This document shows, one piece after another, positions 7,285 to 61,415 of a stretch of 64,000 bases of DNA. Made by a program: the position numbers and the translations under genes. Numbering within the stretch: the stretch's first letter is position 1; each line of letters begins with the position of its first letter. Under the pieces are notes generated by a model. The model had not been told where the DNA came from. It was given only the letters and a program-made list of their open reading frames with translations, and did not search any database. The DNA lies in the IMG/VR virus record IMGVR_UViG_2721755777_000003, positions 62,001 to 126,000 of that record. The stretch is one strand, 5' to 3'. The DNA is from an uncultured virus (IMG/VR IMGVR_UViG_2721755777_000003) (Duplodnaviria; Heunggongvirae; Uroviricota; Caudoviricetes).

Positions 7285-7380
7285 TCTCTCTCCCCCTTTT
7301 CCAAATTATACTATATTTGAAATAAAGGCGAAAGAACAGGCAGAAGCTTCGTGATTCATCTGTATTCTTCATGATATAGC

Positions 7381-7430
7381 TAGATATACATGTATCTATG
7401 AATATCTACATGTATTTATAAGTATCTATA
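7381..7430. repeat. 10-bp-phased degenerate tandem repeat (nnTATCTAyr)
   Basis: TAGATATACA TGTATCTATG AATATCTACA TGTATTTATA AGTATCTATA. Confidence 0.6.
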
Positions 7431-10194: not shown

Positions 10195-11796
10195 TTATGA
10201 TGTAAGCATGAGAAGCTTCGATGTATCCAGGATATAATAAGAAGCATTGTTTACCGTAGCACTGTAAGATTGCTCACCCTCAAAATCATTGATTACGTCT
10301 TTTTCTTCTGCCGTCATATCCTGATATTTTACCTTGCCGTATGAAGGAGGAAGCCAATTTTTCTTTTGGCTGCCAAAGATATTAAATTTCTTTAGAATTT
10401 CCATATCTTTAAACTCGATGTGACATGTTCCTTTTTTATAGAAAGTTACATAGAAGTACTTTAATTCTATTTTTTTCGTTTCACCGTAATGCTTAGCCAG
10501 TTTTAGAGATTCATCTATGTTTATGTCTTCTGTTAACCCATTGTCAAGGTAATTGAAAACTTTTTCGATATCTTTCAACTTTTCTAAGACCTTGTAGTCT
10601 GTTGGACTATAGTGACCGAGCCAACTACAATACCCGTTTAGTGGAATAATTATTTTTTTATTAATTTTATATGATTTATTTGTTTTCCATCCATTATATA
10701 AGTGCACATTTTTTGATGATTCATCATAGTAATGCTTGTGGCTAAATTCTTCAAAAAGATTAAGTATTGTATCTTCTACGCCCTGCGTCATCTCTTTGCT
10801 CATCTGAATTCTTAATGTATAGATATTGAACAAAGAAAAGTCATAATCTCTTAATTCCTCAACGTGCTGCAAGTACTTTTGTTTCAGGTTGCTTGTAAAG
10901 AGCCCCATAAACTGATCATTGTTAAATAACGTATTCCAATACTTCGCCCTAATTTGTTTTATATATGTATTCTCTATGTCATTTTCTTCGGTATTCTTAT
11001 CAATTTGTAGTTTCAATATTGGAGTACTGTCATCATTGAAACTATGCAGAATTAATGGTTTTAAACTGTTATATTCATTGATTAATTTTAAACCCGCTTT
11101 GATTTCATAATTGAACTGTTCTACAATCCCTTTTATAAAGTCTGCATTCACTAACTGTGTTGCTTTATAATCGGCACTAATTTTATGGGGCTCTTCTTTT
11201 TTCAATTCTTCTATTAGTACGCTGCTATATTCTTGTTTTTCAATGCTTATGTATATTAGCGCCGTTTCAACTTCTGTGCTTCGCTCTGAGTTCGAAAAAG
11301 CGTTTTGAATGTATTCAACTTCTGCATTTATTTCCTCTAGCTTTCGTATAAGAAATTTTCTGTCATTTGAATACGGATTTTTTAATGTTTTGGCATTTAG
11401 TACGCAAACAATTTGGCCGGATCTTTGTTGCTTTTCAATTAATTCAATTGCCTTTAATAAATGTTTAACACCACTGCTAAAAGGTGGATTCATAAAAATC
11501 AAATCATACTTCTTGTAAGTGTTAAACGTCAGAAAATCATCTGCAATCACTCTGTAATCTTTGCCTTTAAGTATGTGTCGTAAGTTTTCATCTTGTTCAA
11601 TTGCATCAATGTCATATTTCGAATTCCTTCTATAGTTGCTGGTGTTTTTAAATTGATTGTGAATAGCTTCTACTAAGTTTCCTTTACCTGCTGACGGCTC
11701 CAAAACGGAGTTAATGTACTTCCATTCTACTTTAGATGTCATTTTTCGGATTAACTGTGGTGGTGTCGGATAAAAATCCGGATTATCTTTAAACAT
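10195..11796 (-). CDS. SAM-dependent DNA adenine methyltransferase, probably DUF4942-type
   Basis: FYPTP, VLEPSAGKG (motif I), MNPPF (motif IV); C-terminal WKTN..YKINKKII and FYKKGTCHI motifs. Confidence 0.85.
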   Translation of the reverse strand: MFKDNPDFYPTPPQLIRKMTSKVEWKYINSVLEPSAGKGNLVEAIHNQFKNTSNYRRNSKYDIDAIEQDENLRHILKGKDYRVIADDFLTFNTYKKYDLIFMNPPFSSGVKHLLKAIELIEKQQRSGQIVCVLNAKTLKNPYSNDRKFLIRKLEEINAEVEYIQNAFSNSERSTEVETALIYISIEKQEYSSVLIEELKKEEPHKISADYKATQLVNADFIKGIVEQFNYEIKAGLKLINEYNSLKPLILHSFNDDSTPILKLQIDKNTEENDIENTYIKQIRAKYWNTLFNNDQFMGLFTSNLKQKYLQHVEELRDYDFSLFNIYTLRIQMSKEMTQGVEDTILNLFEEFSHKHYYDESSKNVHLYNGWKTNKSYKINKKIIIPLNGYCSWLGHYSPTDYKVLEKLKDIEKVFNYLDNGLTEDINIDESLKLAKHYGETKKIELKYFYVTFYKKGTCHIEFKDMEILKKFNIFGSQKKNWLPPSYGKVKYQDMTAEEKDVINDFEGEQSYSATVNNASYYILDTSKLLMLTS

Positions 11797-11849
11797 TTTA
11801 AACTCCCCTTCTTTTTAGGGAATGAGATGTTTTCCCATCCCCTCTTATT

Positions 11850-13721
11850 TTATAAACTAGGTTTATATGTGTTGATTAGAGGCTTGAAGCTTTTATTATT
11901 TAAGTAATTTAGAACCTCGTCAAATTGTCTTTTGTCACACGAGTAGTACTTACTGTGAATTATTTTAGTCCCATCTGGTTTAACCTCTACATTATTCAAC
12001 ACAGTTTCGGGCAGCGAGTGCCATCCTTTGAACATCAATAATTCTGAATAGAAGTGTCGGTAATATAAATTTCTTTTATTTTCAGGCTTGTATGTCAACT
12101 TCACTGCATTATCATATTGAGCATATTTAGTTGACTGGCAACTGTCATACGTTATTCTTTCAGTAATTAAAGATCCAAGATCAGATATGTAAAACAGAGT
12201 ATATTTTTCACCTTTTTCAAGATCAGCATATTTAAATTGTTCTTGAATGCTGTCAACTTCATGGAGAATTCTGTATAACGAAATTTTCAATTCTTCTATA
12301 TCTACTTGTTGGATAATTTTTTTCTTCAACTTCAAACTTTTAAACTTCAACTTTTCTTTAAATAAAGATTTATATTTGTTCCAGTCTTCCTTTTTCCAGG
12401 TCTTATGTATATTTAATTCTTCAATTACCGAAGTTGAAATATCTTCCAACACATCTGCTTGATATTTTAACTCCTCTAATTCTCCTTCTTTTAACGCTTG
12501 CTTATGAGAAATTGACTTTTCAGTTTTTGCATTGTCCACTAAACCAACATACCTTGCATAAGAATAGCCTTGAGCATCTACAATAAATTGCAATTTCCCA
12601 CCGTAGTACACACCTACGCCATATAAATTCCATTTAACTGTGTTCTTTTCTAAATCGTCCATATTGTAATAATCAATCATTGAGTTGATCCTGTTGTCTT
12701 CCGTAAAACTTCCACCGGTTTCCGCAAGAAAATCAAAATCATTTAAAAGCAAGTTAGAAAAGTTGTTTAAAGCTTCTTCAGTATTGAAATGCACTTCTTT
12801 TGTAATTTTCACATTTTCAAGTCTGTAGTCACCTTTAGCAACCTCGTCTTTGTATTGATCAAGTGTTTGATTTTTGTTTAAGTTGGCAAACTGTGCATCA
12901 ATAACAAAATACTCTTGATCTTCATTCAGTTGTTTTACTACAATGCTGCTATAGATATTTTCGGCTTGTTTCTTTTCTTCTTCTTGCCGTCTCTTATATT
13001 CAGCATTTTTAAGCTCTTGCTCTTTTAAATACTCATTAAGTTCTTTTTCTTTTCTCGCTTTCTCGGCTTCTTCGAATTCTTCCATCTTTGAATCAAACAG
13101 TGCCATATCTTCTTTAATTTCTTCTGTTTGTTCTGTCACTGTGTATTCCCAGTCCAATGAAACTCGACCATAAAAGTTGTAACTACCTGCGTAATCAGTG
13201 TATGGATCTGCTGGGCTGTAGCAATGGCGATAATTGTTTAAAAGACTGTTGCAATAACCATAAATCGCAGTCAAATAAGCTGACCCTTTTTCATATGGAC
13301 TTGATTTGATTGTGATGTTAATAGTGCTATGTAAATAGCTTCCCCCAGTAGTAACAGAGAATTTGCATTGTGGGAAACGTTGTCTTATATGCTTTCTTAT
13401 TTCCTTTGCCATTTCTTTTACTTCTTGTTCCTTATTTACTTCTACTTCACTCCATTGTGTTGCATCCCACAGACCCATTTTTACACCCTTAGCTTTCTTT
13501 TTAGTTTTAGTGATTGTTTTAGAAGATGAGACTTCTTGTTTAGTGACACCATTAGCGACCTGCATTGATTTTTCTGTCCGTTTGCTCCACCAACATTTTT
13601 TGAATCCAGAGTATCGAAAACCGTTTGATTTAAGATGAGTTAAAACCTCTTGTTCTGGTTTACTATCAAAATAAAGTTCAATTCCGTTTAACTCTTCGTT
13701 AATTCTTAAAACAGCTGTCAT
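11850..13721 (-). CDS. Large early protein with a large-polyvalent-protein (LPD29-like) domain
   Basis: AKEIRKHIRQRFPQCKFSV motif; N-terminal GIELYFDSKP..LKSNGFRYS..WW module; co-transcribed with the MTase. Confidence 0.6.
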   Translation of the reverse strand: MTAVLRINEELNGIELYFDSKPEQEVLTHLKSNGFRYSGFKKCWWSKRTEKSMQVANGVTKQEVSSSKTITKTKKKAKGVKMGLWDATQWSEVEVNKEQEVKEMAKEIRKHIRQRFPQCKFSVTTGGSYLHSTINITIKSSPYEKGSAYLTAIYGYCNSLLNNYRHCYSPADPYTDYAGSYNFYGRVSLDWEYTVTEQTEEIKEDMALFDSKMEEFEEAEKARKEKELNEYLKEQELKNAEYKRRQEEEKKQAENIYSSIVVKQLNEDQEYFVIDAQFANLNKNQTLDQYKDEVAKGDYRLENVKITKEVHFNTEEALNNFSNLLLNDFDFLAETGGSFTEDNRINSMIDYYNMDDLEKNTVKWNLYGVGVYYGGKLQFIVDAQGYSYARYVGLVDNAKTEKSISHKQALKEGELEELKYQADVLEDISTSVIEELNIHKTWKKEDWNKYKSLFKEKLKFKSLKLKKKIIQQVDIEELKISLYRILHEVDSIQEQFKYADLEKGEKYTLFYISDLGSLITERITYDSCQSTKYAQYDNAVKLTYKPENKRNLYYRHFYSELLMFKGWHSLPETVLNNVEVKPDGTKIIHSKYYSCDKRQFDEVLNYLNNKSFKPLINTYKPSL

Positions 13722-13792
13722 TTTCAACCTCTCCATTCTTTATCACAATTTTATTTTTACTCTAAATGTATGTAATTCTTTGACTTGATTTA

Positions 13793-15852: not shown

Positions 15853-15950
15853 AGTGACTAAAGGGGAATTAATCCCCTTTAGCGTGTTATCTGCGTATAC
15901 GTTTGCGTTGTCTCTTGCTACGGAGGCGCTTGCGTGTACGCTTTTTCTTT
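15853..15950 (+). ncRNA. Probable SR6-type antisense antitoxin RNA (ends approximate)
   Basis: TTTACA..TGtTATAAT promoter (15819-15846) pointing antisense into the yonT 3' end; hairpin CTAAAGGGGA/TCCCCTTTAG. Confidence 0.6.
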
Positions 15951-16066
15951 TTGCTTTTTTTATTCTTCATCAGGTTTTGAATCTTCTCAGCTATCGTTAA
16001 ACAGTTGATGATTAAAACCGTGATAGGAATAAGGAAAGCAATTGTTATACCCACTTTCTCAAGCAC
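15887..16066 (-). CDS. yonT: YonT type I toxin, 59 aa
   Basis: GTG start after AGGAGGTG; one TM helix and a very basic tail KKKKRTRKRLRSKRQRKRIRR. Confidence 0.9.
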   Translation of the reverse strand: MLEKVGITIAFLIPITVLIINCLTIAEKIQNLMKNKKSKKKKRTRKRLRSKRQRKRIRR

Positions 16067-17021
16067 TATGTACACCTCCTTTCCTATAACTCTATTATAG
16101 CACATTTTCCCTTCAAAGTCATTTTATTTTTACTCTAAAAATGGATTTTTTTAAATTATTTTGGCACTATTATTCATGTGTGTATAGGCTGTATGAGGCG
16201 TGTATGTGGATTGGATACCAATGATACTATGATCAAATTAAAATTGATTCTAGGTGTATTATAAGGCTTCTAATGATGTGTGATTAGTGTGTATAGGATG
16301 GATATATAATGTATGGTGAAGGAAACGGATAGAGATGATTAGGCAAGATGAGGATATGTAATGGTGGATGTAACGAGATGAAGGAATATGATTAGAGTGA
16401 ATATAAAATAGGTGTGTGGATTAGATGAGTAAATTGTATAGATAAAAAATAAGACTTCGATTTGCTTCCTTTCGTTATATACACGATTATTTTTAATGAA
16501 TGGGTATTCACTTTTAAGTTGACCGCTTAATTATTTTTTCAAAAATAAATATTGTTTTTCATTTGAAATTGTGTTAGCTGTGCAAATTTATCAGTTAAAT
16601 CATAAAAACCCTACATAACGTATCTTATATAGGGAATTCATTACCATTATATAGGGGGTATAATAACATCTAAAGGCAAAAAAACAGGAACAAACGTACC
16701 CCTAGCACTTCCATTTCCACACCCAACTTATTTTTCCACTTTCCCATTTTTCAGCCTATTTTCGCATCGTAATCGCTATCGTAAAAGCCTATAGTATCAA
16801 TGTTTTTCCACCCCTTATTCTCCCCTTTTTCATCAGATTTTTAACTCAACGACCACTTTTCCTCTCTCCTGCCTACGTTTTACGATCACAAAACACCTAT
16901 TATCCCCTTTGACAGCTCTAAAACATTGCTATATCAACTAAATAACCCTTTCCGACCTTCATTTACGATAAGCACTTTTTTTAGCTCACGATCACCCAAG
17001 GGGGGTCATTAAAAATCAAAA

Positions 17022-17050
17022 TAAAAAAGCCACCTTAATTGGCAGCTTTC
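17022..17050 (-). terminator. Terminator after the tubulin gene
   Basis: Hairpin AAAGCTGCCAA..GGTGGCTTTTTT on the minus strand. Confidence 0.65.
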
Positions 17051-17058
17051 CTTTAAAA

Positions 17059-18171
17059 TTAGCGCTTTAGTCTCTTCAGCGCCTCCATATACGAGGTCTT
17101 TTTCGATTCCTTGTTCTCCAGTTTCTTCGGTTTAAATAAATCCTCTCTACGGCGATTCTTCGCTTTATAAACAGTTGTTTCTTTAACTTCAGTGTTCCCA
17201 TTTTCAATTAAATCATCTAACTGCTTCATTCGCTCATTGATCCAGGTTAATCCACTAAGAATCGTTATCACCCTATTACCTTTATCATAATGCCCTTTAA
17301 ATAAGTCTAGGGGCATCTTGTTATCAAAGACATTAAACAGCTCATTATACGATATATGCTCCGTTAAGAACTCATGAACATCCAGAATGACTCCAGCTCT
17401 CATCACATTTGTAAACTCAACAGGAGTGAAAATCGAATTGTTCCACGACTTTTGTATATCTTCATGCAGCTTATCAAAATACTTACCCTCATTTGTAAAT
17501 TCATTGAGGTCTGTTTGAGCAATAGTCATGATTCCTGGTGTGTCAAAAAGCTGATTTAAATCCTTCCTGTCTAATGTGCTGATCTTTGATCCTCTGTCCG
17601 TGTAATTGAGTAAGACTTCGATTAAATCAAGGAACATCTTGTTTGTCTCCTTGTATAGTCTGCTTTCAGAAATCTTCCCTTCATATTTGCTCAAAACCAT
17701 TTGATTATCCAAAGGTAAGACACAGGTCTCTGGCATAGATAAGTCATCAAGTAACTCCAGTGTATTCATCTGGTTAACCAATACCTCGTTATTGTCAGGA
17801 AGGATTGGTACAGCAACTATTGTTTTATGTGTAAGACATTCGTTTAACAATTCTAATAATATAGGGGCTACTCCTGAACCGGTTCCACCAGCTGCAGAGA
17901 AAACTACGAAAATAACTTGAACTGAAGGCTTTTCCATTGTGTTCTTTATAAACTCAATAGAGGACTCCCAGTTATTTTTCATATGTTTCGCTGCTACGCT
18001 TCTGTCTTTACCTACTCCTTCTGTCCCTACCAGATGAAGCTTATCTTGAATATTGATTAATGAATTAAGGTCTGAAAGTGAATAATTTATTGCAACAGAA
18101 TGAAATCCTCTCTTCATTGCTTCATCCGCTATACTTCCACCGGCCTGACCAACTCCAATAAATCCAAACAT
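17059..18171 (-). CDS. Tubulin/FtsZ-superfamily GTPase, TubZ-like
   Basis: GVGQAGG (T1), GVGKD, AAGGTGSG signature (T4), LDN, LDRKDL (T7-like); basic C-terminal tail. Confidence 0.9.
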   Translation of the reverse strand: MFGFIGVGQAGGSIADEAMKRGFHSVAINYSLSDLNSLINIQDKLHLVGTEGVGKDRSVAAKHMKNNWESSIEFIKNTMEKPSVQVIFVVFSAAGGTGSGVAPILLELLNECLTHKTIVAVPILPDNNEVLVNQMNTLELLDDLSMPETCVLPLDNQMVLSKYEGKISESRLYKETNKMFLDLIEVLLNYTDRGSKISTLDRKDLNQLFDTPGIMTIAQTDLNEFTNEGKYFDKLHEDIQKSWNNSIFTPVEFTNVMRAGVILDVHEFLTEHISYNELFNVFDNKMPLDLFKGHYDKGNRVITILSGLTWINERMKQLDDLIENGNTEVKETTVYKAKNRRREDLFKPKKLENKESKKTSYMEALKRLKR

Positions 18172-18455
18172 TAAACCCTCTCCCCTTCTAATTGATATCT
18201 CAAAGCTTCTTGACCATATTGAGTAATAAAAATTGTATGCTCTTTACTGTTTTTCACTATATTAATAAATTGCAAGGCCTCCAGCCGATCGATGCTCTTT
18301 CTAAAGGTAGCATCAGTTAACTGAGTTTTTGCTTGAATGGTTTTCTTCCTAATTGATTTAAACTTTAAATCAGCCCCTTCATCACTCAATAAGCCTAGAA
18401 TATACAGATCATTTCGAGTTAAGTTGTCAATTACAGAATCAAAATAAGTATCCAT
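18171..18455 (-). CDS. Small winged-helix DNA-binding protein, TubR-like adaptor
   Basis: 94 aa from the ATG after AAGGAGGGG; wHTH pattern (TIQAKTQLTDATFRKSIDRLEALQFI..ITQYG); TAATG overlap with the tubulin gene. Confidence 0.7.
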   Translation of the reverse strand: MDTYFDSVIDNLTRNDLYILGLLSDEGADLKFKSIRKKTIQAKTQLTDATFRKSIDRLEALQFINIVKNSKEHTIFITQYGQEALRYQLEGERV

Positions 18456-18521
18456 GTAACCCCTCCTTAATATCTGATGATTTTGAAGTATCTTGGTTGA
18501 TATACGATTATTATATTGTCT

Positions 18522-18565
18522 ATTTGTATTTAAATGCAAATATTTTTGTATCTTAATGCAAATAA
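18522..18565. repeat. Tandem pair of ~20-bp imperfect palindromes between divergent genes
   Basis: ATTTGTATTTAAATGCAAAT and TTTGTATCTTAATGCAAAT. Confidence 0.65.
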
Positions 18566-18633
18566 TTATACTCTGCTTGTATGTAAACCAGTCATTTTAT
18601 AAAATTTATTCAAACAGCAAAAGGATGATTTAA

Positions 18634-18870
18634 ATGGAATATAGGGTTAAAAGTAAGTTGGATTCATTTTTAAGCAGCAAAGGTATCGAAAAAGGCTGGT
18701 TAGCAGAGCAAATAAAAGCTGAAAGAGCAAGTATATCTAGATGGTGTAAAAATGACAGCGAGGGATTTGCAACCGTCCTCCCTAGTACATACAATCTTTT
18801 ATTGATGGCACATGTTCTAAATTGTAAAGTTGACGATCTTTTTGAATTAATCGAAATTAAATCCAATTAA
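18634..18870 (+). CDS. XRE-family HTH regulator
   Basis: WLAEQIKAERASISRWC..LLLMAHVLNCKVDDLF. Confidence 0.85.
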   Translation: MEYRVKSKLDSFLSSKGIEKGWLAEQIKAERASISRWCKNDSEGFATVLPSTYNLLLMAHVLNCKVDDLFELIEIKSN

Positions 18871-18885
18871 CTTTGGATTTTTATG

Positions 18886-18914
18886 TTTACAAGAGTAAAA
18901 ATAAAATATATAAT
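18886..18914 (+). promoter_or_regulatory. sigmaA promoter of the yonO operon with SPbRE filling the spacer
   Basis: TTTACA-AGAGTAAAAATAAAATA(17)-TATAAT; further SPbRE copies at 18958 and 19178. Confidence 0.8.
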
Positions 18915-18989
18915 AAAGACACAACCACATGAAGTGGTCTTTATTTTAATCATTTTTAGAGTAAAAATAAAATAGTATGGAGGTGTAAG

Positions 18990-19169
18990 ATGAAAAAGCA
19001 GTATTTATTTAGTCATTTAATGGGGTTTATTGAGGGAAAAGTAGTCGATGGTACAGCAACACCCGAAGAAGAATACCTTTATCAGGATTACAAGTGGTAC
19101 GGAAAGATTAATAAGCAAAGCTTTACATATCGAAGTTTAGTAAATCAATATCTTAATAGCGAATATTAA
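18990..19169 (+). CDS. 59-aa hypothetical protein upstream of yonO
   Basis: Read manually: MKKQYLFSHLMGFIEGKVVDGTATPEEEYLYQDYKWYGKINKQSFTYRSLVNQYLNSEY; GGAGGTG RBS. Confidence 0.75.
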   Translation: MKKQYLFSHLMGFIEGKVVDGTATPEEEYLYQDYKWYGKINKQSFTYRSLVNQYLNSEY

Positions 19170-19209
19170 GCACTTATAGAGTAAAAATAAAATAATCGGA
19201 GGGGATTGA

Positions 19210-21084
19210 TTGAAAAGAAAAAAAGACGGATTGTCTAAGCAAGTTCACATCTACAGTGTAGACACATCGGCATTTTATAATGACAAAGAAAATTCATTAC
19301 ATAATAAGATTTTGAAGTCTTATAGATACAGAGATTACCTTAAGACATTAGACAATGTAAATCATAAACATAAGAAATACATATCACAAAGGATTACATA
19401 CCTTAAAGAATGCCTTTATTCCGCATTTGAAGAACATAATGACATCAGAACACTTCGAACTGATAGTTTAAGGGATAATAAAGTGATTTCTTTATTTGAT
19501 TCAGTGTTGACCCGTACATTAGGGATTAAAGAAAACACCCTTTCAGAGGAAATCATGGTTGTCCAGACTTATCATTTTGAAGTATTGAAGGACATTATTG
19601 ATCAGGGATTTTTACATAACAAAGAAAAATACGTTTATTTCACGAGCAGCGCCGGTCAAATTCGTACAAAGAAGTCATGTTTCATTAAAAAAAGCACCTA
19701 CGATAAGTATCAGGATGCTTTGACATGCGGCTTGAGTATTGAAAAGATTAACTCCCTTGGTGGTAGCAGCATTAACAAATGGAATAGCTATATGGCCTTA
19801 TCTAACAGCGCCAGTAGCCCTTGGGAGATTGATATTGATAAAGCTATTGTTGTCAACGACTTAGAAACTGATGTGTCGAGTTTCGTTGACTACATTGATC
19901 GAGATACCTACGAGATCACACGAAAAACAATGAACATTCCCATTGAACATACAGATGGCTGCGGAATGATACTCCCTAATCTAAGTCGTAAAAGCTTCAT
20001 GGTAAGACTCCCATGGGTAAAGGGTTTATTAGTCCCTTTTGATTTTCGTAAATTTGCTGAGGAAAACAAAGCTTTTAAAGTAACTGATATATACGGCAAG
20101 GAATGGGACGTGATGAAAGATGATGTTCAAATTATCTTCACTAAGAGCCAGTTTAAAATGTGGAAGTATTATTCATCGTGGGAAGAATATCAAGGCAATT
20201 ATAAAAAATATGGATGCTTAGGGGCAAAACTCAACGAAGAAGATCCTTCTGTTGAAGGGAAGCTCACTTATCAAATGCTCCAGACACTTACAGATATCTC
20301 CGATGAAGAATTAATTCAAATGAGCTCAAAGACTGTAAAAGAGATTACCACATTGGGAACTGACAAAGAAACCATGTTAAGAGTTCTTGGAGCTACAGAG
20401 AAAAAGAAACATCGGACAGCTCTTCAGGACGCTTTACTTCTATATCCAGAACTTCTTAACGATGATCACACGAAAGAAATTATTAAAAATAAAAAGAAAA
20501 GCATGATTAAAGATGCCAAATCAGGAAAATTGCTTGTTGATGGTGCTCGTTATACATATTTATGCCCTGATCTGTATGCTTTCTGCGAAAAATTATTTCT
20601 GAACATCCAGAACCCAAAAGGACTGCTTTCAGGAAGTGATGTCCATTGTTCTTTATATGATGAAGGGTATATTGACATCCTCCGCTCCCCTCACCTATTC
20701 AGAGAGCATGGTGTTAGGTGGAACAAAAAAGATGAGAAATATGAAAAGTGGTTCATTACCCCAGGTGTTTACACAAGCATTCATGATCCGATATCTAAGT
20801 TGCTGCAGTTTGATAATGACGGGGATAAGGCCTTAATTATTTCTGATGAGTTAATCGTCAATATTGCCAAGCGTAATATGGAAAACATCGTTCCGTTGTA
20901 TTATGAAATGTCTGTAGCCCAGAAACAAAAGATTAATAGCAAGAACATCTATGAAGCACTAACTCTTGCTTATGGGATCAATATCGGGGAGTACAGCAAC
21001 AACATCACTAAAATATGGAACAGTGACAATATAAACCTGGACGTGATCAAATGGTTATGTATGGAAAATAACTTTACTATCGAT
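19210..21084 (+). CDS. yonO: YonO single-subunit two-barrel RNA polymerase, exon 1
   Basis: HTDGCG, RLPWVKG, RSPH and catalytic FDNDGD motifs; ends ..NNFTID at the 5' splice site. Confidence 0.92.
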
Positions 21085-22375
21085 TAAATTTATAGTCGCG
21101 TCGCATAGCGATATGCGGATGAAAAGTCAGTGAACCTAGAAATCTAGGGTGTACATTCAGCGAAAAGTAGCGATAGGAAATGATCGTCAATGAGTGTGCT
21201 AACAGGGGAATTCTAATTAATGCATTTTACATTTTTGAACAATGATATTTAAAACAAGGGGGTGACAAAGTGAAGTTTATAAATGAGGATGAGCATAAAT
21301 ATTTGAGTGGGATATATAAGATTGAGCAGATAAGCACCGGCTTAATATATGTGGGGAAAACTAAGATGAAATTTATTAAGCGTTACTGGCATCACACTTG
21401 GAAGCTGAAAAACAATTCGCACTGTAATCGACATTTGCAGAATACCTGGAATAAATATGGAGAAAACGATTTCCAATTTCATGTATTGCAAACAGTTGAT
21501 CCAAACTCAGATATGAACGAATTAGAAACTCACTACATAAATGAACTAGGTGCCTATTTAAATGGCTTTAACATGACCACCGGCGGAGAGGGCAAGAGTA
21601 ATTGTAAGATGTCTGACTCCACCAAAAGAATTATTGGGGAAAAGAATAGGATTAATAACACCGGAAGAAAACTTAGTGATGAGACTAAAGCCAAAATGAG
21701 TAAAGCGAGAATTGGCAGAAAGCTCTCTCCGCAACATAAGGAAAAGCTTTTACAATCTAGAATGAATAAAAGGCATTCGCCAGAATCTAGATTAAAGATG
21801 CGTCAGTCTCATTTAGGGTCAAAAAATAAATCCTCAAAAATAAATGAAACGAAAGCATACGAGATAAAAGTTCGTTTGATTAATGGAGAAAAGATGTCCG
21901 AAGTATCAAAGTCAATGTGTGTTTCCTACCCCATCGTTAAATCAATATTAGAGTGTAAAGTATGGAATCATATTCATGTTACTGGGTGGGACGACTTTAT
22001 TCTTAAATACAAAAGCAAGAAGAAAAGCACTCTTACTCCAAAAGAAGTATTTCGCATAAGAGAACTTCTTAAAAAAGGGTTATCAGCACCCCATGTTGCA
22101 AAAAAGTGTAACATAAAACCCAATGTTGTCTATGGAATTAAACAAGGAAGAACCTATAAAAATGTAAAATGAATGTAGAATGTATTATATGAAAACCCTG
22201 TGCCAAGCGTTTACATCATGCTGGGAAGCACTTGTAAATGAAGGTGCAACGACCATCCTTTATGGAGTAATAATAAGGTGAAATTCCTTATTATGAAGCG
22301 CTGACCATCTGTCTAGCACAGATGATGATATGGTCTATTCCCTAATAAAATATCGGGAAACCGAGGGTATCAAAG
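21085..22375 (+). mobile_element. Group I (IA-like) self-splicing intron, 1291 nt
   Basis: P1 with U21084.G21095 wobble; P3 GTCAGTG/CGCTGAC; P4 ACAGGG/CCCTGT; P7 GACCA/TGGTC; P8 CATCTG/CAGATG; terminal omega-G 22375; excision restores the reading frame. Confidence 0.92.
21270..22172 (+). CDS. Intron-encoded GIY-YIG homing endonuclease with NUMOD3-like repeats and C-terminal HTHs
   Basis: SGIYKI..IYVGKT, R/H/E/N GIY-YIG residues; repeats KLSDETKAKMS and RHSPESRLKMR. Confidence 0.92.
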   Translation: MKFINEDEHKYLSGIYKIEQISTGLIYVGKTKMKFIKRYWHHTWKLKNNSHCNRHLQNTWNKYGENDFQFHVLQTVDPNSDMNELETHYINELGAYLNGFNMTTGGEGKSNCKMSDSTKRIIGEKNRINNTGRKLSDETKAKMSKARIGRKLSPQHKEKLLQSRMNKRHSPESRLKMRQSHLGSKNKSSKINETKAYEIKVRLINGEKMSEVSKSMCVSYPIVKSILECKVWNHIHVTGWDDFILKYKSKKKSTLTPKEVFRIRELLKKGLSAPHVAKKCNIKPNVVYGIKQGRTYKNVK

Positions 22376-23023
22376 TTCGCAAAAACCTTATTCATGCCTA
22401 CCCGACCTGATCATGTTGATGAAAAAATTAAAGATTACGTAAAAAATAAAGTGCCCCACTTCTTTATCAATGCAAAGGATAAAGAAGAACATAGTGTTGA
22501 GTTAATTAATGAAAGCACAGTAAATAAGTTAGACTCCATTATCCCTTCTGACCGAATTAATTTCGCAGCTGTGGCAGGAAAGTTTGATTATCGTTTTCTG
22601 CTCAAGAACAAGGAGATTAAGTTGGACGAGGCAATTATTAGTGAGTACAAACGATTAGACCAAAACAAGAAATGGCTCATGAATGATGAAGACATTAAGC
22701 CTGGACAAAAACTTTATGTTTATAAGGTTATCAAAGACAGATTGCTGAAGATACATGAAGACGAACAATATGTTGCTGATGTTCTGATTAAGTATCTGTA
22801 TAAAAAGAAGAGTAAGTTCAAATCGACACTGTGGGAATGTTTCGGTGCTTGTATATTAAATAATCTAACACACAACCTGAAAACACTAAGAGTTTGCAGT
22901 GATTGTAAAACGCTATTTAGGGCTAAAACAAGCAAGAAACTTTTCTGTGGGAAATGTACAGTTAAGAGGAATAAACAAAAAACAAAGGAACGTGTCATCC
23001 GATTTAGAAATCAAAATGTGTAA
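22376..23023 (+). CDS. yonO: YonO RNA polymerase, exon 2 (spliced product 840 aa)
   Basis: TTC GCA AAA ACC TTA TTC ATG continues ..[15 protein letters not shown]..; C-terminal CxxC..CxxC. Confidence 0.9.
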
Positions 23024-60253: not shown

Positions 60254-61309
60254 ATGTTTAATATGGCTATTCAAGTAAGAGAAAATCTTGTCTCAACCAG
60301 CAAATACTCTATTAAGTGTCCGTATACGTTATCAGCCTCTTATATTACATTTCATAACACAGCCAATGATGCATCTGCAGACGCTGAAATTCGCTACATG
60401 ATCGGCAACAACAATGAAGTTTCTTATCACTTCGCCGTTGATGATGAAGAGGTCGTCCAAGGCTTACCTACAAATCGAAACGCATGGCACACTGGTGATG
60501 GATCAGGTGCGAATTCAGGAAACCGTACTTCTATTGGTGTAGAGGTTTGCTACTCCAAATCAGGTGGAGAGCGCTACAGAAAAGCTGAAGCGTTGGCTAT
60601 TAAGTTTATTGCACAACTCCTTAAAGAACGTGGCTGGGGTGTGGATCGAGTTAAAAAGCATCAAGAATGGTCTGGCAAGTACTGCCCGCATCGAGTTCTT
60701 GATGAAGGTCGTTGGAATGCTGTTAAAGCTGCTATTGCTGCTGAATTGAAAACACTGGACGGAAATACTTCTTCCTCATCTTCAAAGCCAACAAACGTTG
60801 TTAAAACAAATGGTTCTTATGTTAAAAACACAGTTATCGCTGACAGTCTTAATGTGAGAACCCAACGCAATGCAAACTCCTCTATTGTACTCGCTCTTCC
60901 TAAAGGCTCCACTGTCCAATACCAAAAAGGATCAACTCAAAATGGTTGGGGATATATCAAATATACAAACTCTAAAGGTGCTACATACAGCGGTTACGTA
61001 AATGTGAAATACATTAAAAGTGATGCTGAACTTGGACAATCAACCCCAAAGCCTAAATCCACTTCTAAGCCTAAAAGCAGTGGTATCAAATCTGTAGGCA
61101 AAATTAAAATTGTCGGTGTACAAAGCGCTGCAATCGTTATGGACAGACCCGATAAAAACAAAGCGAAGAATCTCGGCACTGTGAAGCTAGGTGACACACT
61201 CAGCATTTCTGGCTCAGTGAAAGGGTCAAACAATGCTAAGGGTTACTGGGAAGTTATCTACAAAGGTAAACGCGGCTACATCTCAGGACAATTTGGGTCA
61301 AAAATCTAA
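60254..61309 (+). CDS. blyA: N-acetylmuramoyl-L-alanine amidase endolysin with SH3-like domains
   Basis: HNTAN, SYHFAVDD, AWHTGDG, HQEWSGKYCP motifs. Confidence 0.85.
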   Translation: MFNMAIQVRENLVSTSKYSIKCPYTLSASYITFHNTANDASADAEIRYMIGNNNEVSYHFAVDDEEVVQGLPTNRNAWHTGDGSGANSGNRTSIGVEVCYSKSGGERYRKAEALAIKFIAQLLKERGWGVDRVKKHQEWSGKYCPHRVLDEGRWNAVKAAIAAELKTLDGNTSSSSSKPTNVVKTNGSYVKNTVIADSLNVRTQRNANSSIVLALPKGSTVQYQKGSTQNGWGYIKYTNSKGATYSGYVNVKYIKSDAELGQSTPKPKSTSKPKSSGIKSVGKIKIVGVQSAAIVMDRPDKNKAKNLGTVKLGDTLSISGSVKGSNNAKGYWEVIYKGKRGYISGQFGSKI

Positions 61310-61415
61310 ATATATTTAAATATCTTTGAGGATGATTGTAGCTCAAAGTGTATCAATAATTATTTAGGAGGTGATGTGTCATTACCTCCTATTTTTTATG
61401 GAGGATGATTGCATT

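Follow-up and report, generated by a model that had tools for sequence, protein, structure and literature searches.

A tubulin-type (TubZRC) partition cassette beside the RNA polymerase genes of an SPbeta-like provirus

The present study describes a small gene cassette in a window of 64,000 nucleotides from an uncultured phage, i.e. positions 62001-126000 of the 126,095-base IMG/VR record IMGVR_UViG_2721755777_000003, which is classed as a provirus. The cassette comprises tubR and tubZ, two genes resembling those of the type III (TubZRC) partition systems, a divergent helix-turn-helix (HTH) gene, and the DNA between them (Table 1). An earlier note on this DNA had reported a gene for a 94-residue winged-helix protein coupled by TAATG to one for a 370-residue GTPase of the tubulin/FtsZ family, and this layout was recovered at the same coordinates; the overlap of stop and start codons suggests that tubR and tubZ are co-transcribed. 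The terminator that the earlier note placed behind tubZ was also predicted, as a hairpin with a T tail (six such sites were found versus 1.8 expected). It is very probable that the locus is a real type III partition system.

Table 1. Features of the cassette and its surroundings (positions in base pairs, bp, of the window)
Feature	Position	Strand	Remarks
tubZ	17059-18171	-	370-residue tubulin/FtsZ-family GTPase, flexible basic C-terminal tail
tubR	18171-18455	-	94-residue winged-helix centromere-binding adaptor, translationally coupled to tubZ
Candidate tubC centromere and operator	18470-18529	-	Four to six degenerate units in 10-bp phase; binding presumed
Predicted sigma-A-type promoter of tubRZ	18510-18539	-	TTGCAT-18-TATAAT; pattern match only
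Two palindromes over the predicted -35 box	18521-18542 and 18545-18562		Likely operators of the 78-residue HTH protein (presumed assignment)
78-residue Cro/XRE-type HTH gene	18634-18870	+	Divergent from tubR; Pfam HTH_26, E 5.9e-6
Predicted intrinsic terminator 3' of tubZ	17023-17052	-	Hairpin with T tail
Likely pac (genome-opening) block	16455-16706		Within a non-coding stretch conserved in SPbeta-like phages
Type I toxin-antitoxin pair	15855-16066		yonT 15887-16066 (-) and SR6 RNA 15855-15952 (+)
Three copies of the phage-wide repeat around yonP	18892-19193	+	Likely SPBRE, MrpR site
Fourth copy of the phage-wide repeat, before yonT	16121-16136	-
yonP and intron-split phage RNA polymerase gene yonO	18990-23023	+

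First, the 370-residue protein is, to judge from its sequence, a TubZ with GTP-binding and catalytic residues intact. It matches the Pfam Tubulin family (PF00091) with an expectation value (E) of 6.8e-20, above the curated cut-off, and the intact GGTGSG loop seen in the earlier note lies within the signature AGGTGSG at residues 94-100, which has the same form as in the TubZ of Clostridium botulinum phage c-st. Residues G95, G96, G98, G100, D201 and D204 are invariant in all 45 aligned relatives, and the two aspartates align to the T7 loop of FtsZ and TubZ. The AlphaFold model has a mean predicted local distance difference test score of 86.7, with a low-confidence tail (residues 329-360) and a helix at the end; c-st TubZ is the first of its structural matches, followed by CetZ and the Bacillus TubZ proteins, with FtsZ lower. 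The tail carries a net charge of +7, as in plasmid pBM400. A comparison by profiles and phylogeny with TubZ, PhuZ and FtsZ, which the earlier note had proposed as a check, grouped the protein with pBM400 TubZ: both fall in one clade of 37 rows (support 99), consisting mostly of viral contigs, in a 57-row tree built by a quick method that does not fix the exact place of pBM400 within the clade. This clade is separate from FtsZ, pBtoxis, pBsph, c-st and PhuZ, and the score against the ftsZ equivalog profile is 29.6 bits at a cut-off of 295.2, which sets the protein apart from host FtsZ. A protein search gave 81 matches, 66 of them at 36-96% identity, from sources including Bacillus, Metabacillus, Cytobacillus, Priestia and Brevibacillus; among 50,697 records, five matched, representing just two phages, namely c-st (26%) and phage G (gp138, 30%).

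Second, the 94-residue protein matches PDB entry 4ASN, designated TUBR, at E 1.3e-17 (Pfam matches are weak). A TubR lies directly upstream of TubZ in 70 of the 74 loci examined, the four exceptions being loci with a TubZ at 30-35%. Both genes are under strong purifying selection, the ratio of non-synonymous to synonymous polymorphism (pN/pS) being 0.065 for tubZ and 0.037 for tubR at a synonymous divergence of 0.18. The value for tubZ comes from 21 of 24 close loci, after exclusion of two frameshifted loci and one offset locus, and that for tubR from 19 loci, after the further exclusion of two with the other allele.

Third, the repeats upstream of tubR that the earlier note had mentioned are of two kinds, i.e. 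two palindromes 22 bp apart, returned by a repeat finder, and an array phased at 10 bp. When self-matches were counted over 25 non-redundant loci, in the 60 bp that precede the ribosome-binding site of tubR, the autocorrelation reached z scores of +10.1 and +10.4 at lag 10 and of +9.2 and +12.6 at lag 20, while the periodicity was weak at 60-120 bp upstream (up to +2.5) and absent at 120-180 bp upstream of tubR and before 25 control genes. The method recovers known centromeres, since the periods it returned were 12 bp in both pBtoxis and pBsph and 11 bp in c-st. A 10-bp model was trained on 24 loci, the window being excluded, and under it the array ranked first among approximately 252,000 positions of the 126-kb record, whether scored as four, five or six units, and none of 40 shuffled genomes reached its score. 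In leave-one-out runs at period 10, the true site came first in its locus in 9 of the 25 cases, within the top 0.1% in 19 and within the top 1% in 24, whereas the control periods of 9, 11 and 12 placed it in the top 0.1% in 1, 5 and 6 of 25 and ranked it best in 0, 0 and 2. The array forms one block of four to six units, with no family periodicity comparable to it at 60-180 bp upstream, and reaches from the predicted -10 box as far as the ribosome-binding site, in agreement with the autorepression reported for the TubZRC family (PMC6009700, PMC5016525); PMC6009700 also describes TubZRC centromeres as direct repeats upstream of tubR that overlap the promoter. The array, and not the palindromes, is the likely centromere tubC. 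The palindromes were rejected for this role because the signal of the family, with its period of 10, is found downstream of them, and they are for the same reason retained as likely operators of the HTH protein. The predicted tubRZ promoter has a weak -35 box and is absent from a stricter promoter scan. Three results count against the array: the periodicity is not significant in the window alone (lag 10, z +0.1 to +0.6), nor in pBM400 alone, and the pumilus-type site is found weakly by the family model (score 1.8).

Arrays elsewhere were also considered as extra TubR sites, at 61304-61371 and 7356-7423 of the window and inside uvrX of relatives (scores 16-25). The lysin-side and uvrX arrays are unsupported in this role because homologous, partly periodic DNA occurs in three tubRZ-free phages (scores 12-15.5). 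The first of them, a two-strand array phased at 10 bp, lies between the lysin gene and the ribosome-binding site that follows it and scores 24.8 in the relative G010. It persists in part in SPbeta, BUCT083 and the SH1 circle, none of which has TubR, and may serve a different regulator of the lysis genes. The array at 7356-7423, a possible TubR site likewise phased at 10 bp, lies between a gene for 145 residues and an acyltransferase gene and is kept in G010 and plaBV1; it had no match in the three tubRZ-free phages and the pumilus-type phage checked, and its score is close to that of shuffled sequence (17.7 is reached in 1 of 40 and in 3 of 40 shuffles). Of the arrays observed, that of phage G037 (score 31.5), a member of the training set, shows the 10-bp phasing most clearly, and in one pBM400-like locus (L097) the region upstream of tubR appears by eye as tandem repeats of about 42 bp, each with about four array units.

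The divergent gene of 78 residues accompanies tubRZ in all 24 close and pumilus-type loci of yonO, the phage RNA polymerase gene, and is absent from all 24 loci with YonO at 83-88%. Among the open reading frames (ORFs) of at least 55 residues in the record, five are common to two other carriers and absent from three non-carriers, and these include tubZ, tubR and the HTH gene, the other two being missing from the carrier plaBV1. On this pattern of occurrence, the HTH gene is the third gene of the cassette in close relatives; it is not universal among distant carriers. No TubY-like gene was found beside the operon or among the ORFs that co-occur with it, and the XRE-type protein may fill the role of accessory regulator. 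In 3 of 24 close relatives, a block from about 18210 to 19077 has been replaced by another allele, in which TubR is 51-52% and the HTH protein 42% identical, TubZ is kept at 95-96%, and the last TubR codons are retained. The upstream DNA of the swapped allele is unalignable and holds a different perfect palindrome and a different array, and the block also holds yonP. Competition between circles in the same cell would be expected to select for altered centromere specificity.

The distribution of the cassette suggests that it has been lost from the best-known member of the group. A survey anchored on yonO, covering 78 loci from the best 80 of 204 stretches and biased to close kin, found the cassette in 19 of 19 loci with YonO at 94% or more and in five of five pumilus-type loci (71-72%). 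None of the 24 loci at 83-88% had it intact, and of the 30 more distant loci, many with short flanks, three carried it. In a profile search of whole records, TubZ was detected in 3 of 16 records of other, distantly related phages and in none of 26 SPbeta-type records. In a quick YonO tree, from which one locus (L223) was left out as short, the SPbeta group (support 100) is nested in a clade, and the outer branch of this clade has the cassette; L207, labelled as a carrier there, is a deletion remnant (1-360) in which the last 40 or so codons of tubZ are retained beside yonP. Loss in the SPbeta lineage is the simpler reading of this tree position and this remnant, and the cassette was likely lost from the model SPbeta species, with the caveat that these phages are mosaic and that the carrier label changes several times on the tree. 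The sister of L207 (L183, 7505-7660) has a shorter trace of tubZ beside yonP. Intact coupling and array persist across lineages that are 35-55% identical. One cassette 99% identical to that of the window lies on a 133-kb contig labelled Streptomyces (L031, NZ_JBHVTC010000023.1), likely a contaminating Bacillus phage; the single close match of a GTDB scan is in this same contig, and the scan is uninformative on distribution.

The window phage belongs to Spbetavirus, having the SPbeta gene order (aimR, yonV, yonT/SR6, yonP, yonO and yonN) and a known integration locus, and 109 ORFs of the record match SPbeta. TubZ matches at 94-99% in B. velezensis and B. amyloliquefaciens suggest that it belongs to the proposed 'eta' species. 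Around the cassette, the order is yonV, yonT/SR6 (yonT, NCBIfam NF047537, E 2.5e-34; SR6, Rfam RF02892, 88.8 bits), a conserved non-coding stretch, the cassette, yonP, yonO and yonN. The non-coding stretch is matched by 25 phage records, and the deposited genome ends of BUCT082 and BUCT083 map within it to 16455 and 16706/16707, i.e. 251 bp apart. The Spbetavirus preprint places the opening point and a block of about 250 bp between yonP and yonR (bioRxiv 10.1101/2021.11.22.469490); since the mapped ends fit this block, 16455-16706 is read as pac, and tubC would lie about 1.8 kb from it. The cassette likely sits between the RNA polymerase unit and the block where packaging starts. A structured RNA at 16100-16890 was considered and rejected, as there is no Rfam match in that stretch and the pac reading fits better. 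The flip in GC skew near position 18000 provides no evidence for an origin because it coincides with the change in gene direction. The earlier note had stated that SPbeta of strain 168 carries other genes at this position; instead, the slot between yonP and the conserved block is empty there, at about 230 bp, and yonR-yonS cannot be regarded as a replacement because in SPbeta they flank the other side of the conserved block. Other genes occupy the slot in some tubRZ-free phages. A repeat found throughout the phage, with 36 copies in the record at up to two mismatches, lies before yonP, yonO and yonT, and is likely the SPBRE bound by the repressor MrpR, as judged by position against the peak list in PMC10516654 and not by consensus. 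In the same scan, copies flank the cassette and none was found in the tubR promoter.

The left end of the record holds the 3' part of a xanthine-permease gene, presumably pbuX. The insertion of Spbetavirus phages in pbuX is known (bioRxiv 10.1101/2021.11.22.469490). Counts of serine recombinases were rejected as a measure of integration, as 14 of 49 records match and the records are probably cut short, and the provirus class was used instead; no serine recombinase was matched in the record of the window itself, which probably stops short of that end. Two carriers have been deposited as circular plasmids of 122-125 kb, which bears on a facultative plasmid state. For one of them, the prophage table in PMC10177454 lists no second low-GC element of that size, and by our reading the Ph01 coordinates in that table fit the plasmid. 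The circles in PLSDB were nevertheless rejected as proof of plasmid life, since a tubRZ-free circle has also been deposited and circles in assemblies therefore do not need tubRZ. Two complete SPbeta-related phages of 164 and 159 kb with terminal repeats (G031 and G037, or L049 and L056), which carry TubRZ near terminase-like genes, are candidates for true plasmid prophages; neither has a serine recombinase match, and both have genes of the tyrosine recombinase family, as SPbeta does. Partition genes alone do not prove plasmid replication (PMC8026635). Contigs from RNA libraries cover tubRZ in three of four runs and also cover structural genes; depth cannot rank the genes, and the contig ends differ between studies.

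Herein, we tentatively propose that the cassette segregates the phage's own circular genome in transient free phases, so that copies reach both daughter cells. By analogy with pBtoxis, pBM400 and c-st, TubR dimers would cover the array with about one dimer to each helical turn, act as repressors of the tubRZ promoter and build a segrosome; by way of the basic tail of TubZ, this complex would follow TubZ filaments that are dynamic and driven by GTP. The anatomy of the locus suggests that the divergent HTH protein, bound to the palindromes, would set when the operon is on, and the context points to the phage's own circle as the substrate. The phase served would likely be transient, i.e. after injection and before integration or upon excision without lysis, with occasional longer carrier states. 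This proposal is supported by plasmid orthologues on 18 Priestia plasmid records (41-44%), by the swap of specificity, by the two carriers deposited as circles and by the two complete carriers without a serine recombinase match. Moreover, the cassette does not look like a plain lytic operon because there is no likely lytic-repressor site at the tubR promoter.

Several observations weigh on the other side. The window element is a provirus integrated in pbuX rather than a plasmid prophage, and the provirus class covers 30 of the 44 carrier records in IMG/VR, among them all 16 of the near-identical records that were checked. The serine recombinase is intact in both circular carriers, and one of three full-size SPbeta-like circles in PLSDB, leaving out a fourth record of 806 kb, lacks tubZ. 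No initiator for plasmid-mode replication turned up, though no search was aimed at one. The absence of TubZ from the SPbeta-type records and the remnant in L207 belong here as well, as do frameshifts in 2 of 24 close tubZ copies (L020 and L022, in pieces of 301 and 240 residues), which may reflect sequencing error or decay. With regard to the episomal state suggested in the earlier note, the phage's own DNA is the best reading of what is moved; the integration in pbuX, the 16 proviruses and the tubRZ-free circle count against a lasting episome.

The most serious alternative, which we nevertheless consider unlikely, is a job in the lytic cycle, in which, following induction or infection, TubR on tubC would couple the circle to TubZ filaments and position it for replication or packaging. 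PhuZ has this kind of task in jumbo phages, and a direct precedent exists in AlpA-AlpC of the integrated prophage CGP3 of Corynebacterium glutamicum, where alpA or alpC mutants have about two-fold less circular DNA (PMC4446434), and carriers of the present cassette are mostly integrated. The short distance from tubC to the likely pac block and the adjoining RNA polymerase unit would suit such a job, but this position might also be an insertion-tolerant junction of divergent operons, since other genes fill the slot. The link to yonO or yonP is kept in many distant carriers, two complete distant carriers have terminase-like genes no more than 15-17 kb away, and a modest benefit would fit repeated loss of the cassette. 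However, the tubR promoter is without a likely MrpR site, an array of operators that spans the transcription start points to steady autoregulation, and a lytic role does not need a swap of centromere specificity.

All remaining explanations are improbable even when taken jointly. The first of these, in itself quite improbable, is that the system acts while the phage is integrated or on the host, either by tethering the prophage-bearing terminus region or by poisoning FtsZ and delaying division. The predicted promoter looks dependent on host sigma-A, insertion sites of the SPbeta type are located at the terminus (bioRxiv 10.1101/2021.11.22.469490), and TubZ and FtsZ have a common fold; however, the low ftsZ equivalog score and the separate TubZ clade described above render the interference with host FtsZ raised in the earlier note unlikely, and a conserved TubR and array would be superfluous for a protein that only inhibits FtsZ. 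It is very unlikely that the cassette is a relic of a plasmid-like ancestor, now on its way out and without present function: its absence from the SPbeta species, the remnant in one relative, the frameshifted copies and its patchiness in distant relatives (3 of 16 records) would agree with decay, but the low pN/pS of both genes and the persistence of coupling and array across divergent lineages argue against it. Least probable of all is exclusion or incompatibility, in which a resident TubR would bind the tubC of an incoming relative, hinder its establishment and drive allele swaps, for although TubR, array and HTH gene were swapped with TubZ retained in three close relatives, and at most one complete SPbeta-like phage per host is reported in the preprint (bioRxiv 10.1101/2021.11.22.469490), this would leave the conserved GTPase and its catalytic aspartates unexplained, and ordinary phage mosaicism may suffice because the swapped block includes yonP.

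Returning to segregation of the phage's own circle, a bolder form of the hypothesis, which we regard as doubtful, holds that most Spbetavirus lineages outside B. subtilis are dual-living, either integrating or persisting as actively partitioned plasmid prophages with a pBM400-type segrosome and a 10-bp centromere, that the TubR/tubC/HTH block is swapped to escape incompatibility, and that SPbeta is a derived loser. If this were true, large SPbeta-like phages, and not plasmids, would be the main reservoir of this TubZ subfamily.

Among known systems, that of plasmid pBM400 from Priestia megaterium, whose crystallised TubR is 4ASN, is the closest, with both proteins 41% identical, the same order and coupling, a basic TubZ tail with the same end motif, and an upstream site that the 10-bp model places within the top 0.1% of the locus. 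The differences are that pBM400 is a 54-kb plasmid with an HTH gene for 326 residues upstream, whereas an integrating phage of more than 126 kb, a divergent XRE-type gene for 78 residues and allele swapping are seen here. The type III assignment of the earlier note is supported, with pBM400 as the closest characterised system rather than PhuZ or c-st, whose TubZ is 26% identical. The c-st system is also phage-borne, on a plasmid prophage (PMC8026635); it gives the best structural match (template modelling scores about 0.69/0.83) and lies about 10 kb from a yonO homologue, whereas its array has 11 bp against 10 bp here, its tail is acidic instead of basic, and it has a downstream MerR-type tubY that is absent here. 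The TubZRC systems of pBtoxis and pBsph have the same three-part layout and a similar fold, and their TubR proteins match the profile of the window clade at E 2e-5 and 3e-6; they differ in a 12-bp period and in being true plasmids, and pBtoxis TubZ has about 19% identity in the structural alignment. In PhuZ of the phiKZ-like jumbo phages, another phage tubulin is found (PHROG 4733 match, E 5.8e-10), which forms a distant long branch in the TubZ tree. PhuZ is not known to work with a TubR and a centromere, whereas the present protein comes with TubR and an array in a 126-kb provirus. Phage G also has a TubR-TubZ pair (L251, 2689-4116), in which gp137, directly next to gp138, is matched by the TubR profile (E 1.7e-17) and gp138 is 30% identical to TubZ; phage G is a jumbo phage (498 kb), lies outside the 37-row clade and has no clear 10-bp array. 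Finally, in AlpA-AlpC-alpS an integrated prophage likewise has an adaptor, a motor that forms filaments and repeats upstream, and the system works on the circle after excision. It is induced early and raises replication about two-fold (PMC4446434), but its motor is of the actin type without homology.

No paper describing a tubRZ cassette in SPbeta-like phages was found by literature search. The main text of the Spbetavirus preprint (bioRxiv 10.1101/2021.11.22.469490) does not mention ftsZ, tubulin, TubZ or partition, though its supplementary orthologue table may list the gene, and PMC12361552 mentions FtsZ for another phage only. The parts of the cassette are themselves of a known kind; what appears to be new is the 10-bp-phased candidate centromere, the divergent HTH companion, the swap of TubR, array and HTH gene around a fixed TubZ, the position beside the likely pac block, and the likely loss in SPbeta. 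To date, tubulin-based partition has been studied on plasmids and one plasmid-like phage, and here it is kept under selection in integrating phages that are close kin of SPbeta. Built-in comparisons, i.e. carriers with SPbeta and allele A with allele B, might reveal how a partition machine is used around integration and excision. The array extends the series of 12-bp and 11-bp centromeres and offers a precise target for footprinting, and the swap of TubR with a fixed TubZ should help to separate DNA-reading from motor-binding residues.

Several minor observations concern the neighbouring genes. In the window, yonO (19210-23023) is split into parts of 625 and 209 residues by a gene for a 300-residue GIY-YIG/NUMOD3 endonuclease (21270-22172), likely a group I intron with a homing endonuclease. 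A second YonO-type gene, at about 25% identity, is present in six close carriers with TubZ at 96-99% (L025, which is plaBV1, L002, L004, L008, L019 and L020), which suggests that the RNA polymerase itself has been swapped between close relatives; in plaBV1, it encodes 923 residues and is preceded by a CoiA-family gene. At 10195-13736, where SPbeta has yonX-yopA, the window carries genes for a 533-residue DUF4942 methyltransferase-like protein and a 628-residue LPD29 protein of the large polyvalent type.

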